Positions 6,117 to 62,932 of a DNA stretch of 64,000 bases are shown in pieces (position 1 is the stretch's first letter; every line of letters starts with the position of its first letter). Below the pieces are notes generated by a model. That model was not told the origin of the DNA. It did not search any database and saw only the letters and a program-made list of their open reading frames with translations. This DNA is from an uncultured Methanosarcinales archaeon (GTDB lineage: Archaea; Nanobdellota; Nanobdellia; Woesearchaeales; ARS49): NCBI GenBank assembly GCA_964354285.1, contig CAYGYR010000001.1, forward strand, positions 262,424 to 326,423, in the 5' to 3' direction. Position numbers and translations under genes: made by a program.

Positions 6117-6317
6117 ACACCTCTATTAGTTTATGAGGATACTTTAAGCCAATTAGTATATAAACTTTTTGATGATTTAGTAAGCGACAAAATAACTCAT
6201 AATATAAATCGCTTACTAAAGCTTGCAGGACATAACTAGTTTATGATTTATTTATGTCCTGCATTGATTGAGACGAGAGATTAAAAAGTACGAGAACGTA
6301 CAGTACCCTTTCTTGAG

Positions 6318-6412
6318 GCCCTTCGGGCATTTACAACTGTATATGCGGACTGTTTTTCCATACAATACAACTGCGAGCAAAGCAGAGCTTTGCGAGCCTA
6401 GATGCCCGAAGG
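6318..6412. repeat. 12-bp perfect inverted repeat, cccttcgggcat ... atgcccgaaggg, flanking about 70 nt. This may be a structured element.
   Basis: I read it directly in the intergenic region between the pilin gene and lrp. Confidence 0.4.
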
Positions 6413-6441
6413 GCAATTAGCTTTTAACAAAAATAAAAAAT

Positions 6442-24560: not shown

Positions 24561-25400
24561 AATCTGGCAGGCCCGGCATACCGCATCCTTGCTCGGCTCC
24601 CCGCATTCTGTGCAAAGATTCAGTTCTTTATTTGTAACAAATTTCTTCCTCAGTTTTGGAAGCTGCTTCAAGAAATATTTCACAATATTTATCTTGACAT
24701 TTGGATTAATCTGCTCATATTCATTCAATAAATTCCTGATGTAATTCCTGTAAGCGTCATGCGCGCAGGGGCATCTGCCATATTTTACTGGAAAGCCCAT
24801 TATTTTTGAGTATCGCGCAACATCTGACTCCTTAACAAGATACAATGGCTTTATTCGCGGAACAAAATTTTTATCACGGATAATGCCTGGCATTGGGCCA
24901 AGGCGCGCATTCATCTCCTGCTTGTTCTTCAAAAGATTCATCAGGTAAGCCTGAGCCTCGTCATCTGCATTATGGCCTGTCACAACCTTTGTCGCCCCGA
25001 TTTTTCTTACAAACTTGTTTATTAGATATCTTCTTAGAACCCCGCATACAGCACATGAGCGCATGTCAACCCCTTTCTGCTTAAGCAGGGACTGGATGTA
25101 GCATAAAGAGTAGCCAAACTTCTGCCTGAAAGAGATAACATGAAGCTTTATCTTCTGCTCTTTGCAGAATTTTTTTATGCTCTCAAGATTCTGCTTTGTG
25201 TAGTTTCCAATAAGGACGTCGACAGTCACTGCCTCAAGGGCATAGCCAAACTTTTTCAGCAGGTGCAGAACCGTTGTGCTGTCCTTGCCCCCAGAGACTG
25301 CAACAAGAACTTTATCCTTAGGGCTAATCAAATTAAATTTCTTTATCATGCCCTTCACTTTTTTCTCAAAGGATTCAACAAACTTTTTGTCTGAAAGCAT
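24525..25400 (-). CDS. PP-loop ATPase of the TtuA/Ncs6/TtcA family, a tRNA thiolation enzyme.
   Basis: It has an SGGKDS PP-loop (AVSGGKDSTT). An internal CAVCG and a C-terminal CTECGx9CRAC zinc/Fe-S motif are present. Confidence 0.7.
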   Translation of the reverse strand: MLSDKKFVESFEKKVKGMIKKFNLISPKDKVLVAVSGGKDSTTVLHLLKKFGYALEAVTVDVLIGNYTKQNLESIKKFCKEQKIKLHVISFRQKFGYSLCYIQSLLKQKGVDMRSCAVCGVLRRYLINKFVRKIGATKVVTGHNADDEAQAYLMNLLKNKQEMNARLGPMPGIIRDKNFVPRIKPLYLVKESDVARYSKIMGFPVKYGRCPCAHDAYRNYIRNLLNEYEQINPNVKINIVKYFLKQLPKLRKKFVTNKELNLCTECGEPSKDAVCRACQILSHMNKGSQAI

Positions 25401-26586: not shown

Positions 26587-27747
26587 TTACTTGTGTGCCT
26601 CGCTTTTTTGCTTGAATGGGGACATTGCCCGCAGCTTTTCAACAACTTCATTAACTGCCTTGATTGTGTAATCAATCTCTTCTTCTGTAGTGTATTTGCT
26701 CAATGAGAATCTTATGCTTCCGTGGCTCTGCTCTGGCTTCAAGCCGAGAGAAAGAAGAACATGGCTTGGCTCAAGCTTATGCGACGTGCAAGCAGAGCCT
26801 GTTGAGACAGCAATTCCCTTGTCATCAAGGCTCAAAAGCAAAGCCTCCCCCTCAATGTACTCAAAAGAAACATTAGCATTATTGCACAGCCTGTTTTCTC
26901 TAGAACCGTTGAGCCTTGTTCCTGGAATTTTCAGCAGCTCGCTGATTAATCTGTCTCTGAGCTTTGCCATTTTTTCAATATCTTTCTGTGCGACAAGCTC
27001 GGCGGCTTTTGCAAAGCCGACAGCGCCTGCAACATTCTCTGTTCCTGGCCTTATGCCCAACTCCTGGGCACCACCATCAAAAAGCTTCTGGGGCTTTGTT
27101 CCCTTCCTAATATATAGTGCACCTATTCCTTTTGGCCCATGGAACTTGTGGGCAGAGATTGAAGCAAGATCAATATTTATCTTCTTAACATCAATCTGAA
27201 CTTTAGCGAAGGACTGCACGATATCTGAATGGAACAAGACATTTTTTTCCTTGCAAATCTTCCCTATCTTGTCAATCTGCTGTATTGTCCCTATCTCGTT
27301 GTTTGCATGCATTATTGTGGCAAGAATTGTCTCTTTCTTGATTGCTTTCTTCAGGTCATCAAGCTTCACAAAGCCGTCTTTATCAACGCCAACATAAGTA
27401 ACAGCAAATCCTTCTTTCTCTAAAGCCTGGCAGGCGTGAAGAACTGCATGGTGCTCAAAAGCAGAGGTGATGATATGATTTCCCTTACTTTTCAAAGCAC
27501 GAGCAACTCCTTTAATTGCAAGATTATTGCTCTCTGTCCCGCCGCTTGTAAAGATTATTTCATCAGGATCTGCATTGATTATCTTAGCTATTTTTTCTCT
27601 TGCGCTTTCAAGAGCCTCTTTTGCGCTCTCACCAAAAGAATGGATGCTTGATGCGTTCCCATAAATCTCTATAAAGAAAGGCTTCATAGCCTCAACTACC
27701 TCAGGAGATGTTTTTGTTGTGGCTGCATTATCCAGATATATTTTCAT
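26587..27747 (-). CDS. iscS: Cysteine desulfurase IscS/NifS, a class V aminotransferase.
   Basis: It has a PLP-lysine motif (SAHKFHGPKGIGALY). The active-site Cys region is SGSACTS. Confidence 0.9.
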   Translation of the reverse strand: MKIYLDNAATTKTSPEVVEAMKPFFIEIYGNASSIHSFGESAKEALESAREKIAKIINADPDEIIFTSGGTESNNLAIKGVARALKSKGNHIITSAFEHHAVLHACQALEKEGFAVTYVGVDKDGFVKLDDLKKAIKKETILATIMHANNEIGTIQQIDKIGKICKEKNVLFHSDIVQSFAKVQIDVKKINIDLASISAHKFHGPKGIGALYIRKGTKPQKLFDGGAQELGIRPGTENVAGAVGFAKAAELVAQKDIEKMAKLRDRLISELLKIPGTRLNGSRENRLCNNANVSFEYIEGEALLLSLDDKGIAVSTGSACTSHKLEPSHVLLSLGLKPEQSHGSIRFSLSKYTTEEEIDYTIKAVNEVVEKLRAMSPFKQKSEAHK

Positions 27748-27829
27748 TGACGAAAATAACTGTATGGAGATTTATAAACCTTTTGCAAGTTTAATGCCGC
27801 ACGTTCGCGCGACATCGTGAATGCGAGAC

Positions 27830-28018
27830 CTCAGAAAACTTTGTTTTCTGATGGTGCTCGGAAACTTTACAAGTTTCCGACAGAAGAGTAAAACCTCTGT
27901 TTTGCAAAGCAAAACAGCCAATAAATTGCTTCTCAAGCACGAACGAGGAGCGCATTTTGATCAAACCTGCGCCGAACAGGGTTCGGCGTGGTCTCAAAGA
28001 GTGTTGCTCTTTGAAACT
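27830..28018. other. Cluster of five consecutive perfect hairpins with 7-9 bp stems and 3-5 nt loops in the iscS / rpl34e divergent intergenic region. It is a candidate structured RNA or an operator array.
   Basis: The hairpins are tcagaaaac/gttttctga (27832), cggaaact/agtttccg (27859), ctgttttgc/gcaaaacag (27896), cgccgaac/gttcggcg (27970) and caaagag/ctctttg (27996). Confidence 0.4.
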
Positions 28019-28070
28019 TTCCCAAAGTTTGTACGCAAGCTTTTTAAATGGCTCATTATTCTTTGCAGGT

Positions 28071-28343
28071 ATGGTCGAAGGCAAAAAGAAATCACGAACT
28101 TTCAGAAGGGTTTACGTGAAGACCCCTGGAGGAAAGACTGTACTGCACTATAGAAGGCGAAAGCCTGCCAAAGCACAGTGCGGCAACTGCGGGGCATTGC
28201 TAAAAGGAGTTCCGCAAGCAAGAGTGTACAAGATGAGAAACATGCCCAAGACCATGAAGAGGCCAGAGAGGCCATACGGCGGAGTGCTTTGCACAAGATG
28301 CATGCGCGCCAAGATTATTCAGAAAGCAAGAATCTCCTCGTAG
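28071..28343 (+). CDS. rpl34e: Ribosomal protein L34e.
   Basis: MVEGKKKSRTFRRVYVKTPGGKTVLHYRRRKPAKAQCGNCGALLKGV is the L34e signature with its zinc ribbon. I took the start at the internal Met. Confidence 0.8.
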   Translation: MVEGKKKSRTFRRVYVKTPGGKTVLHYRRRKPAKAQCGNCGALLKGVPQARVYKMRNMPKTMKRPERPYGGVLCTRCMRAKIIQKARISS

Positions 28344-41919: not shown

Positions 41920-42762
41920 CTAAGCCTTTGCTTGCGGTATCTTCTGGGCAAGCTCTGGGTTATGACAAACCTCCTTCAAGCTGCAGCTCTTGCACTTATT
42001 CTCATTCTTATTTAAAGGAGGAAGCTTCTCTGACGAAAGCATGGCCCTAACCTCTTTAACAAGCTCCTTTACCTGATCTTTTAAAAAAGGATTAATCTCA
42101 ATGCTTCTTGCCTGGTTATCATCCAGGTATCTTATTATTCCGCTATTTATTGGAACCTTAAAACTATCCTCCAGCAGCAAGGCATATGCTGCAAGCTGAA
42201 TCTTGTGGTCTTCCCAAGCTCCTTCTTTTGGAGCTTTTCCTGTCTTTAGCTCAACTGGAAGAAGCATTGTTGGAAAAACCTGGACCTGGTCTATCTTGCC
42301 AGTAAGGTAAAGATTCTGCGAAGCAATTTTGTATTCTGACTTGAGCTTTGGCGTAAGCGCCTCCCACAAATCTTCACCATAAACCTTGTTTTTCTGTATA
42401 AAAGAGAAAAGATTTGCTGCGCGCACCTCTGCCTCAAGCCTGAAAAGCACAATATACTGCTTGAATGCATCCATTGGAAGAAGACTGACGAGTTTCAGCT
42501 GGTTCTTGCTCTGAATAATAACCATCCTGAGAATCTGGGCATATCTCTTGTTGTACATGTCAAGAATCTGCTCGTAAGCTGAGCTGCTGTCAATAGAGCA
42601 GATTATGCCTTTCTCTGTCTTCTCCATCTCCTCAAAGACACGGTGCTTTATTGCGCCCCTGACAAGAAACTCCTTTGGAATCTCTTCATAACCAAGAACT
42701 TTCTGAAGATAGAGCTTTCTTGCACAATAAAGATAGGCAGTTAATGATGTGACTGAAAGCAT
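41920..42762 (-). CDS. Cas4/RecB-like PD-(D/E)xK nuclease with a 4-Cys Fe-S cluster. It has no CRISPR context.
   Basis: The first cluster ligand is in the N-terminal YCARKLYL. A conserved ELKTGK motif is present. The C-terminal CKSCSLKEVC supplies the remaining Cys. Confidence 0.65.
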   Translation of the reverse strand: MLSVTSLTAYLYCARKLYLQKVLGYEEIPKEFLVRGAIKHRVFEEMEKTEKGIICSIDSSSAYEQILDMYNKRYAQILRMVIIQSKNQLKLVSLLPMDAFKQYIVLFRLEAEVRAANLFSFIQKNKVYGEDLWEALTPKLKSEYKIASQNLYLTGKIDQVQVFPTMLLPVELKTGKAPKEGAWEDHKIQLAAYALLLEDSFKVPINSGIIRYLDDNQARSIEINPFLKDQVKELVKEVRAMLSSEKLPPLNKNENKCKSCSLKEVCHNPELAQKIPQAKA

Positions 42763-54682: not shown

Positions 54683-54699
54683 TGAAAATCCCTCCGAAA

Positions 54700-55132
54700 T
54701 TGAGTTTTTACGTTTTTTGCGTTTGTTACCATTACACAGGTGTGAAAAGTATTTAAAGCTTTCTGTTTTAGGCGGCTTTTATGACCCTGAGACCATGATT
54801 TCGCATGGAAAAAAGAGATATCTTTGCTGTATGACTTGACGAGTTCACTTTAGTTTTTATATTATATATTATATTATATGCATTGGTTTTTATATATTAT
54901 ATTATATTATTTTTTATATAGAAAAATAATAATAAATAATAAATAAATAATAAATTAATATATAAAATTTGTCTTAACAGATTTTTAATACATAATACCA
55001 ACTACACAATCTAACATAATTGTTGCAGTTAATGCACAAGTATTGTTTTATGATTAGTTAAATTTCTATAAGAAATCAAGGGGTAGGGCCAAATGGAAAA
55101 ATATAAATACCTCCCTTTCGTTTGGAACTTTT
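54700..55132. other. Candidate chromosomal replication origin (oriC). It has an approximately 95% AT unwinding element with tatattatat-type tandem repeats (54850-54960), repeated TGGAAAAA / ORB-like elements, and an ORB-like ttccaaacgaaagggagg element on the minus strand at 55111-55130.
   Basis: It sits immediately upstream of orc1/cdc6, which is followed by polD small and large. That is the arrangement known for Pyrococcus oriC. The region contains mini-ORB-like GGAAA cores and an extreme AT tract. Confidence 0.5.
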
Positions 55133-56344
55133 ATGTCTGAAAGGGGGCTGGTGGATTATTTTGAAAAGTTCTTAACAAGGGAGCCATTGTTCAAAAATAA
55201 GTCTGCACTGCAGTCAGCATACTGCCCTGAAAAAATTTTTCACAGAGAAGACCAACTACAAGCAGTAGCAAACATCCTTGCTCCATGCTTAAGAGGGGAA
55301 AAGCCATCAAACCTTTTTATTTACGGCAAAACAGGCACAGGCAAAACACTCACAGCAAGATATGTTTCAAAGCAGTTGCAAGTCATAGCAGAGGAAAGAG
55401 AGCTTTTAATCAAGATAATTTACCTCAACTGCAAGCTGAAAAAAGTTGCTGACACAGAATACAGGCTAATTGCCCAGCTTGCAAGAGAGCTTGGCACACA
55501 GATTCCACCAACAGGCCTACCTACAGATGAAGTTTACAACATATTCTACAGGATTGTTGATAAAGAAAAAAATATAGTCATACTTATCCTTGATGAGATA
55601 GACCAGCTTGTCAGCAAAGCAGGAGATGAAATGCTTTACAATCTAACAAGGATAAACTCAGAACTTAAGCAGGCGCAGATATCTATTGTAGGAATATCAA
55701 ACGATCTCATTTTCACAGAAAATCTTGATCCTAGGGTCAAGAGCTCGCTTTCAGAAGAAGAACTTGTGTTTCCGCCATATAATGCACTGCAGATACAAAA
55801 CATACTCCAACAGAGGGCAAAAGAGGCATTCAAAGACGGCGTAATAGAGCAGGGAGTGATAGAAAAATGCGCTGCATATGCTGCCAGAGAGCACGGCGAT
55901 GCCAGAAGGGCACTTGAATTGTTAAGGGTTGCAGGAGAGCTTGCAGAAAGGCAGAATGAAACAAAAATCATGCTCAGCCACCTTGACAAAGCAGAAGAAA
56001 AAATCGAGAAAGACCGCGTGCTTGAAATGGTAATAACACAGCCAAAACAATACCAAGCAACACTATACTCAATTTACCTGATTTGCGAACAGAAGAAAAA
56101 ACTTATTTTTACAGGAGAAGTTTATGAGCTGTACAAGAAGATATGTGACAAGACAAATTTGAGGCCGCTAACACAAAGAAGGATTTCTGACATTATCTCA
56201 GAAATGGACATGTTAGGCATCATAAACGCAAAAGTTATCTCAAAAGGGCGCTACGGCAGGACACGGGAGATCAGCATCTCAACTCAAGAAGAACTCAATC
56301 CTAAAATCAAAAAAATACTTGAAGAACAGCTTGGTTTTGCCTAA
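55133..56344 (+). CDS. cdc6: Orc1/Cdc6 replication initiator.
   Basis: It has an AAA+ domain (GKTGTGKT; ILDEIDQL) and a C-terminal winged helix. Confidence 0.9.
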   Translation: MSERGLVDYFEKFLTREPLFKNKSALQSAYCPEKIFHREDQLQAVANILAPCLRGEKPSNLFIYGKTGTGKTLTARYVSKQLQVIAEERELLIKIIYLNCKLKKVADTEYRLIAQLARELGTQIPPTGLPTDEVYNIFYRIVDKEKNIVILILDEIDQLVSKAGDEMLYNLTRINSELKQAQISIVGISNDLIFTENLDPRVKSSLSEEELVFPPYNALQIQNILQQRAKEAFKDGVIEQGVIEKCAAYAAREHGDARRALELLRVAGELAERQNETKIMLSHLDKAEEKIEKDRVLEMVITQPKQYQATLYSIYLICEQKKKLIFTGEVYELYKKICDKTNLRPLTQRRISDIISEMDMLGIINAKVISKGRYGRTREISISTQEELNPKIKKILEEQLGFA

Positions 56345-62825: not shown

Positions 62826-62932
62826 AAAAATTGTGCGGGTTTATGTCAGAAACCCGCGGTTTCTGAGCACATTAGAAATGCTTTGCATTTCAAATGATAC
62901 TCCTTACGTTAGTGCGCAATTTTTTTTTAATC
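62826..62932 (+). terminator. Two mutually exclusive hairpins (gcgggttt/aaacccgc and tcagaaacc/ggtttctga) followed by a T9 tract. This is a probable terminator downstream of 61972..62820.
   Basis: I read the hairpins and the oligo-T directly from the sequence. Confidence 0.35.

Follow-up and report, generated by a model that had tools for sequence, protein, structure and literature searches.

The DNA analysed here is a stretch of 64,000 nucleotides (nt) of sequence from an archaeon of the Woesearchaeota (DPANN) (contig CAYGYR010000001.1, positions 262,424 to 326,423), referred to as the window and numbered from its first letter. Its subject is the spacer between two divergently transcribed genes, which contains a palindrome-rich insert of 230 nt that varies between strains of one species. 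The gene to the left (minus strand, ATG at 27747) encodes a cysteine desulfurase of the iscS/nifS type (Pfam Aminotran_5) and is followed downstream by genes for a NifU_N protein, ThiI and a tRNA-thiolation ATPase, forming an iscS-iscU-thiI operon. The gene to the right (plus strand, ATG at 28071) is rpl34e (Pfam Ribosomal_L34e), and the KOW-domain gene behind it was called rpl14e from its N-terminal sequence and the gene order, the Pfam KOW match being weak. The labels iscS and rpl34e, which an earlier note had assigned from the sequence alone, are confirmed by these Pfam matches. The nearest L34e loci among GTDB genomes belong to metagenome-assembled genomes of Woesearchaeota or Nanoarchaeota; such related loci and contigs are designated below by numbers preceded by L.

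Most genes of the window are preceded by a motif close to AAAGGTTTWTAAAT, with a 9-nt TATA core that ends about 22–24 nt upstream of the ATG. The iscS operon carries such a core, TTTATAAAT (27770–27778), ending 22 nt from the ATG, with an AAAGG stretch resembling a B recognition element on its upstream side. The TATA box within it (Table 1) is conserved in L001, L066, L089 and L003, and that of the rpl34e-rpl14e operon is unchanged across all aligned relatives. As the TATA cores lie about 22 nt from the ATG, the transcripts of both genes are predicted to be leaderless, promoter positions being taken from the motif. The hairpins of the insert thus sit between two back-to-back predicted core promoters, upstream of each, an arrangement which speaks against the idea, put forward in the earlier note, that they could belong to a leader.

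Table 1. Position of the insert, its hairpins and the neighbouring predicted elements in the window.
Feature	Position	Strand	Remarks
Palindrome-rich insert, 230 nt, non-coding	27802..28031	.	Presence/absence polymorphism within the species
Imperfect hairpin Ha	27798..27825	.	Crosses the left insertion boundary; outer 5' arm CGCA is flank DNA
Hairpin 1, TCAGAAAAC-TTT-GTTTTCTGA	27831..27851	.	With a bulge extends to 27828-27855
Hairpin 2, TCGGAAACTT-TAC-AAGTTTCCGA	27858..27880	.	10-bp stem
Small hairpin AGAG-TAAAAC-CTCT	27885-27898	.	Overlaps hairpin 3
Hairpin 3, CTGTTTTGC-AAA-GCAAAACAG	27897-27917	.	27885..27917 together with the small hairpin
Imperfect 13-bp hairpin H3b	27923..27957	.	Two U-G pairs on the plus strand
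Variable block	27968..28014	.	Hairpin 4 (27970-27988) and hairpin 5 (27994-28014)
Hairpin 6, AAACTTT-CCC-AAAGTTT	28014..28030	.	GAAACTTT common to hairpins 2 and 6
Predicted TATA box of the iscS operon, TTTATAAA	27771..27778	-	From sequence and window-wide promoter pattern
Predicted TATA box of the rpl34e-rpl14e operon, TTTTTAAAT	28041..28049	+	Ends 21 nt before the ATG at 28071
Spurious 110-aa reading frame	27821..28153	+	Cut to 65 aa in allele B; nonexistent in the empty allele
Spurious 97-aa reading frame	27791-28084	-	Split in allele B; nonexistent in the empty allele

The insert contains six perfect hairpins with stems of 7–10 bp and loops mostly of 3 nt (five of the six), all stems being free of mismatches. 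Three imperfect hairpins (27798–27825, 27885–27898 and 27923–27957) complete a string of nine. The five palindromes described in the earlier note were all found where it had placed them, hairpin 2 having a stem of 10 rather than 8 bp, and its statement that the structure exceeds chance is borne out by the counts. With perfect stems of at least 7 bp as the threshold, shuffled versions of 27802–28031 (n=5000) contain on average 0.06 hairpins and at most 2, and a background of 0.58 hairpins per kb in the rest of the window gives a Poisson probability of 7e-9 for six or more. The perfect hairpins account for 55% of the insert, whose GC content is 0.46 (0.42 for the window). They are not identical to one another; the shared GAAAC/GTTTC core noted previously is present in several of them in the form (G/A)AAAC...GTTT(T/C), in strict alternation, and the centre-to-centre spacings are irregular (28, 38, 72, 25 and 18 bp). 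Overlapping hairpins occur within the window at 27885–27917, 27991–28030 and 62835–62866. In the first two cases, AAAAC-CTCT-GTTTT leads into hairpin 3 and an extended hairpin 5 leads into hairpin 6. The same insert was recovered from independent ENA, JGI and Logan assemblies; it is therefore genuine sequence and not an assembly artefact. A CRISPR-repeat-like reading of ...TTTGAAAC was rejected, direct repeats being absent.

Comparison with contigs from the same species reveals three states of the spacer. L066 lacks the insert: the BLAST alignment ends at 27801 and restarts at 28032, these two points being separated in L066 by a single nt, although its L34e protein is identical to that of the window and nucleotide identity amounts to 95.7% on the left and 98.2% on the right. 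The nearest sister lineages L001 and L089 (80–83% nucleotide identity, same gene order) lack it as well; their spacer measures 86–96 nt and contains both of these TATA boxes, separated by about 40 bp. Since the empty state has the short, ancestral spacer length of the sister lineages, the parsimonious polarity is a gain of the insert in part of the species. The version of the window, allele A, is shared by L068, L081 and L097, and a second version, allele B, is found in L067, L069 (identical to L077) and L070. Allele B is about 99% identical to the window over 166 nt at the left end of the insert and 20 nt at its right end, and the block of about 47 nt with hairpins 4 and 5 is exchanged for 52 unrelated nt, making it 5 nt longer. 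The new block reads TTTTGAT-CAAACC-ATCAAAAACGC-TTTT-GCGTTTTTGG-GGTT-CCAAAAAAC-TAAA-GTTTTTTG and forms four overlapping perfect hairpins, every 3' arm doubling as the following 5' arm. In a hand-parsed alignment, 31 of its approximately 52 nt are the reverse complement of the immediately preceding 7–9 nt, in four steps with loops of 3–6 nt, the first step being templated by the upstream TTTTGAT which both alleles have in common. A chain of four hairpins is unique to allele B among the 567 hairpins in the 689 kb analysed, where chains of two or three are rare. Stepwise intermediates were not found among the seven contigs. Between window positions 24839 and 31343 the comparison with L066–L069 gives a mosaic of identities (89–100% per 200 nt), which suggests a recombining population, with frequent homologous recombination, in which the insert segregates.

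The two open reading frames that overlap the insert on opposite strands had been suspected of being artefacts, and their fate in the other alleles (Table 1) together with the lack of independent protein relatives corroborates this: among 5.8 billion proteins, the only relative of the translation was a JGI gene call on the same locus (L069). The ATG at 27821 that opens the 110-residue frame reads GTG in all other carriers of the insert, and a TATA-like sequence, AAGTTTAAT (27787–27795), lies at the usual leaderless distance from it.

The same site has received other DNA elsewhere. The related Woesearchaeote L003 (74% L34e identity, same gene order) carries at the same point an insert of about 210 nt (L003 positions 2757–2965) that differs from that of the window and is likewise rich in palindromes. 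Its perfect hairpins, one of 11 bp whose loop is 3 nt and one of 9 bp, lie inside a 13-bp inverted repeat. The inverted repeat TTGaCCAATAGCGC / GCGCTATTGGCAA forms its borders, with CGCAAGG ahead of both arms. In L101 an insertion sequence (IS) with a DDE transposase (DDE_Tnp_1) occupies positions 1–1177, has the inverted-repeat ends GGCTTCATCCGAAAAAA and stops just upstream of the rpl34e TATA box. Further on (1901–1954), L101 has three A-run hairpins with loops of 3 nt that overlap as a chain and resemble in style the hairpins of the window. Judged from these alignments the site between the promoters is tolerant of insertions, because three lineages have taken up extra DNA there. Palindromic DNA would be tolerated at this place because it lies upstream of both promoters and disrupts nothing.

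The explanation that we favour, tentatively and with somewhat less than even confidence, is that the insert is a young, probably neutral island of palindromes at an insertion-tolerant spot, which would have been built or remodelled by fold-back (template-switch) synthesis. We infer from the sequence that its hairpins are palindromes at the level of DNA and not selected RNA helices. Fold-back synthesis, also called snap-back or intrastrand template-switch synthesis, would have made the palindromes during replication or break repair, every new stretch being a reverse-complement copy of the stretch just synthesised. That this process gives rise to perfect inverted repeats and to new hairpins is well established (PMC8794818, PMC11724301, PMC11292364). 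Such synthesis would yield perfect Watson–Crick stems with minimal loops of 3–4 nt, would hand on the GAAAC/GTTTC core and reuse arms in successive hairpins, and would entail the strand symmetry, the missing homologues and the missing constraint described below. New sequence that is the reverse complement of adjacent older sequence, with short loops, is what allele B contains. Reshaping by fold-back may still be under way. The sole certain effect of the island is on the distance between the two TATA boxes, which has grown from about 40 bp to about 270 bp.

Several points weigh against this explanation. Documented fold-back insertions are short, about 5–34 bp in PMC11724301, so that an island of 230 nt would need many rounds and exceed the single events on record. 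An allele of intermediate length was not found among the seven contigs, hairpins 1–3 are separate and not chained, and for the approximately 45% of the insert outside the perfect hairpins a template was not found. The search for a donor covered exact patterns and 64 kb of the genome, and an unsampled mobile source may exist. The insert may also have a role as RNA, and the retention of two hairpins at the same place in both alleles could reflect selection for structure.

The alternative of a functional RNA takes the insert as a lineage-specific gene for a small non-coding RNA of about 220 nt on the plus strand, running from about 27820 to a run of five T at 28041–28045, a string of hairpins that part of the population would have acquired and that evolves as one hairpin replaces another. 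We consider it unlikely. Predicted folding is strong, with z-scores for the whole spacer of -5.4 on the plus and -6.6 on the minus strand. The TATA-like sequence AAGTTTAAT, although weak, is at the usual distance from about 27820, the T5 run follows hairpin 6, and the imperfect helices Ha and H3b and the extension of hairpin 4 contain G-U pairs on the plus strand. Moreover, either allele has two hairpins in the part that differs between them. On the other hand, the total folding energy of the insert is symmetric between the strands (-93.7 kcal/mol on the plus and -91.8 kcal/mol on the minus strand); strand preference differs from hairpin to hairpin, and hairpin 5 is more stable on the minus strand. 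The only candidate for a long-range helix, GAGACC/GGTCTC, is not conserved, being lost in allele B, and both substitutions private to the window among the carriers disrupt pairs that are intact in the other carriers, G>A at 27821 a C-G pair of Ha and G>A at 27935 a G-C pair of H3b. Loops of three nucleotides combined with flawless stems are unusual in old functional RNAs, which also counts against a small RNA.

The earlier note had regarded a structured RNA as compatible with the hairpins and had pointed to Rfam, covariation and conservation in related genomes as checks, none of which speaks for a conserved RNA. Searched with Rfam 15, the whole window yielded no match at the gathering score, and at E<=1 none in this region; at E<=10, the segment 27600–28250 gave matches at chance level (E of about 1 or more, 10.8–20 bits as compared with gathering scores of 47–91). 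The covariation term of RNAalifold is +2, which is no support, the carriers differing by two single-nucleotide polymorphisms and the block swap. Finally, the hairpins are missing from the same-species strain L066 and from the sister lineages L001 and L089. Among specific RNA classes, RNase P, SRP, C/D and H/ACA RNAs were dropped as there were no boxes, pockets or model matches, and ARAGORN detected no tRNA gene in the entire 64 kb.

The sharp ends and the clean presence/absence polymorphism of the insert, the other insertions at the same site in L003 and L101, and the replacement of the two-hairpin block as a module raise another explanation, also unlikely in our view: a remnant or non-autonomous mobile element (a MITE [miniature inverted-repeat transposable element], an IS200/IS605-type element or a cluster resembling repetitive extragenic palindromes (REPs) and bacterial interspersed mosaic elements (BIMEs)), whose enzyme would have its gene in another part of the genome. 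The sequence TCAGAAACC-CGC-GGTTTCTGA at 62846–62866, a palindrome of a similar kind, fits with this explanation. However, several hallmarks of such elements are absent. The ends of the insert, CGTTCGCGCG... and ...CCCAAAGTTTG, are not complementary, so that terminal inverted repeats are missing; comparison of the flanks GCCGCA and TACGCAAG with the empty site of L066 revealed no target-site duplication. None of the tetranucleotides GTAG, CTAC, CGTC and GACG was seen by eye in 27802–28031, no pattern search having been run. The hairpins differ from one another, unlike those of REP families. Neither a transposase nor an integrase, reverse transcriptase or HUH enzyme was found by Pfam in the 64 kb (45 long reading frames and 9 genes of the locus).

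A second copy was not found either, in searches that are sensitive to exact or near-identical copies only. Comparing the spacer by nhmmer and short-word blastn with the window and approximately 100 related loci returned the same locus only; as a dispersed motif, GAAAC...GTTTC has no significant excess in the window (2 sites, 0.7 expected). Searched by blastn, plasmids and phages yielded no match to the insert, and five pattern scans of IMG/VR gave between 0 and 3 chance matches with unrelated flanks. A scan of JGI metagenomes with hairpin 2 (loop left free) gave 18 matches, two of them from this locus (L077 and L081) and 16 from unrelated contigs, mostly high-GC and bacterial, which match in the hairpin 2 palindrome only. 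Ten of the latter (L071, L073–L076, L079, L082, L083, L085 and L088) have the palindrome of hairpin 2 exactly, in many cases as a perfect palindrome of 23 bp, and a second palindrome, CCGTTTTCTTTCAAAGAAAACGG or TCCGATTTCC..GGAAATCGGA, directly adjoins it. Rfam gave no match for eight of the unrelated loci, and the two palindromes may form a conserved bacterial element of their own.

Some of the same traces could be accounted for by a dedicated system of hairpin cassettes, of a kind so far undescribed for archaea, in which modules of about 20–25 nt would enter permissive intergenic sites, be exchanged there and be joined into chains; this seems to us quite improbable. It would be a counterpart, with non-identical modules, of REPs and the REP-associated tyrosine transposases (RAYTs), the hairpin-recognising enzyme being encoded elsewhere in the genome, and the exchange between alleles A and B, the L003 insert, the hairpin chain of L101 and the cluster at 62835–62891 would be its traces.

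The position between divergent promoters suggests two regulatory explanations. According to the first, which is very improbable, the insert is a bidirectional terminator that stops stray transcription from symmetric TATA boxes, or an insulator whose cruciforms absorb the negative supercoils that arise between the two divergent operons. The iscS TATA box TTTATAAA is a perfect palindrome, and because the stems are made up of A and T runs, both strands have T-runs (of the length T4 in allele A and T5–T6 in allele B). Between convergent genes, at 62835–62891, there is a hairpin cluster of a similar kind, beside a T9 run. Most of the T-runs of allele A are, however, only 4 long, and close relatives cope with TATA boxes 40 bp apart. 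The second explanation, an array of palindromic operators at which dimeric regulators (of the Lrp/AsnC type, for example) would act on the iscS and rpl34e promoters, follows a suggestion of the earlier note and has, in our judgement, the slightest chance of all. The location upstream of two divergent promoters agrees with it. So do the several palindromes with 5-bp cores around a 3-bp centre (AAAAC-TTT-GTTTT, TTTGC-AAA-GCAAA), an arrangement which the 13-bp sites of archaeal feast/famine regulators resemble, and the window encodes elsewhere TrmB-type regulators and one weak AsnC-type helix-turn-helix (HTH) protein below the Pfam cut-off. Yet the arms are all different, the centres are not all A/T, the spacings are irregular, and a regulator gene is not adjacent. 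The motifs are not repeated ahead of other genes of the window, and strains of the species can do without the array, part of which has been exchanged for unrelated palindromes.

Inverted repeats are concentrated in other intergenic regions of the window as well. The window has 58 inverted repeats that are perfect over 9 bp or more (loops of at most 120 nt), twice the mean of shuffled sequence. Of these, 24 lie in intergenic DNA, which makes up 7% of the window, and they include all the repeats of 12–13 bp. Very strong predicted folding (z-scores of -8.6 and -7.7) was found for a second spacer, 6117–6441, which has no Rfam match, adjoins a gene of 157 residues with the weak AsnC-type HTH match below the Pfam cut-off, and contains the long perfect inverted repeats TTTAGTAAGCGA..TCGCTTACTAAA, TGCAGGACATAA..TTATGTCCTGCA and GCCCTTCGGGCAT..ATGCCCGAAGGGC, the last enclosing GCAAAGC-AGA-GCTTTGC. 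The cluster between convergent genes at 62835–62891 comprises three perfect hairpins, two of them chained (GCGGGTTT-ATGTCAG-AAACCCGC and TCAGAAACC-CGC-GGTTTCTGA, the latter resembling hairpin 1). The T9 run beside it lies at 62921–62929, and a Logan contig terminates within the cluster. A spacer of 450 nt (54683–55132), whose GC content is 26% and which contains several AT-rich inverted repeats, lies directly upstream of cdc6/orc1 (55133–56344), which is followed by two genes for PolD subunits. This spacer, situated about 27 kb from the insert, is probably a replication origin, and a reading of the insert itself as an origin was rejected. The window also contains a gene for a stand-alone Cas4/PD-(D/E)XK nuclease (41920–42762); a CRISPR array and other cas genes are absent from it.

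If the fold-back explanation is true, the locus is a natural example, from an uncultivated DPANN archaeon, of replication or repair errors making perfect hairpin arrays from nothing, and the process would still be acting, because the empty, A and B states coexist in one recombining population. Arrays of this kind would be raw material for later small RNAs, terminators and protein-binding sites. The locus also calls for caution in annotation: folding as strong as that of the spacer (z-scores of about -5 to -6, six perfect stems) is possible in young dispensable DNA, and comparison at the strain level quickly separates dispensable palindromic DNA from functional RNA.

Comparison with known systems reveals partial likenesses in each case. 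With REPs and BIMEs (PMC2817692, PMC3733652, PMC12306157) the insert shares clustered extragenic palindromes of about 20 nt in one intergenic region that are variable between strains and non-coding, and palindromic elements have been reported from archaea too in these papers. REPs, however, form one family with tens to hundreds of members per genome, a GTAG/CGTC tag and a RAYT transposase, whereas here the hairpins are all different, the tag is absent, other copies were not found and the window encodes no RAYT. Examined for copy number, the 64 kb contain no second copy and one resembling palindrome, at 62846. Like MITEs and IS200/IS605 elements, the insert is a small, structured, non-coding presence/absence insertion, at a site that elsewhere (L101) harbours a real IS; it differs from them in having no terminal inverted repeats, no target duplication and no architecture confined to subterminal hairpins, and in being single-copy within the data searched. 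The high predicted stability is that of the structured RNAs of Rfam 15, but the insert matches no family, occurs in one population only and has neither a strand preference nor a long-range architecture. Arrays of Lrp/AsnC operators likewise consist of several short palindromes in series, each centred on 3 bp, upstream of promoters; the insert lacks a single consensus and regular spacing and is dispensable.

Fold-back hairpins, as described in PMC8794818, PMC11724301 (inverted insertions at breaks) and PMC11292364 (stem-loop extension by Pol theta), resemble the insert in their perfect inverted repeats and minimal loops, made in one step, and in the reuse of an arm just made as the next template, as in the chain of allele B; selection on an RNA is not needed. 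The known events are single, tens of nucleotides long and mostly studied in eukaryotes, as opposed to about nine hairpins over 230 nt in an archaeon. Among the systems compared, the insert works most like inverted repeats derived from fold-back synthesis, at a larger, serial scale and in an archaeon.

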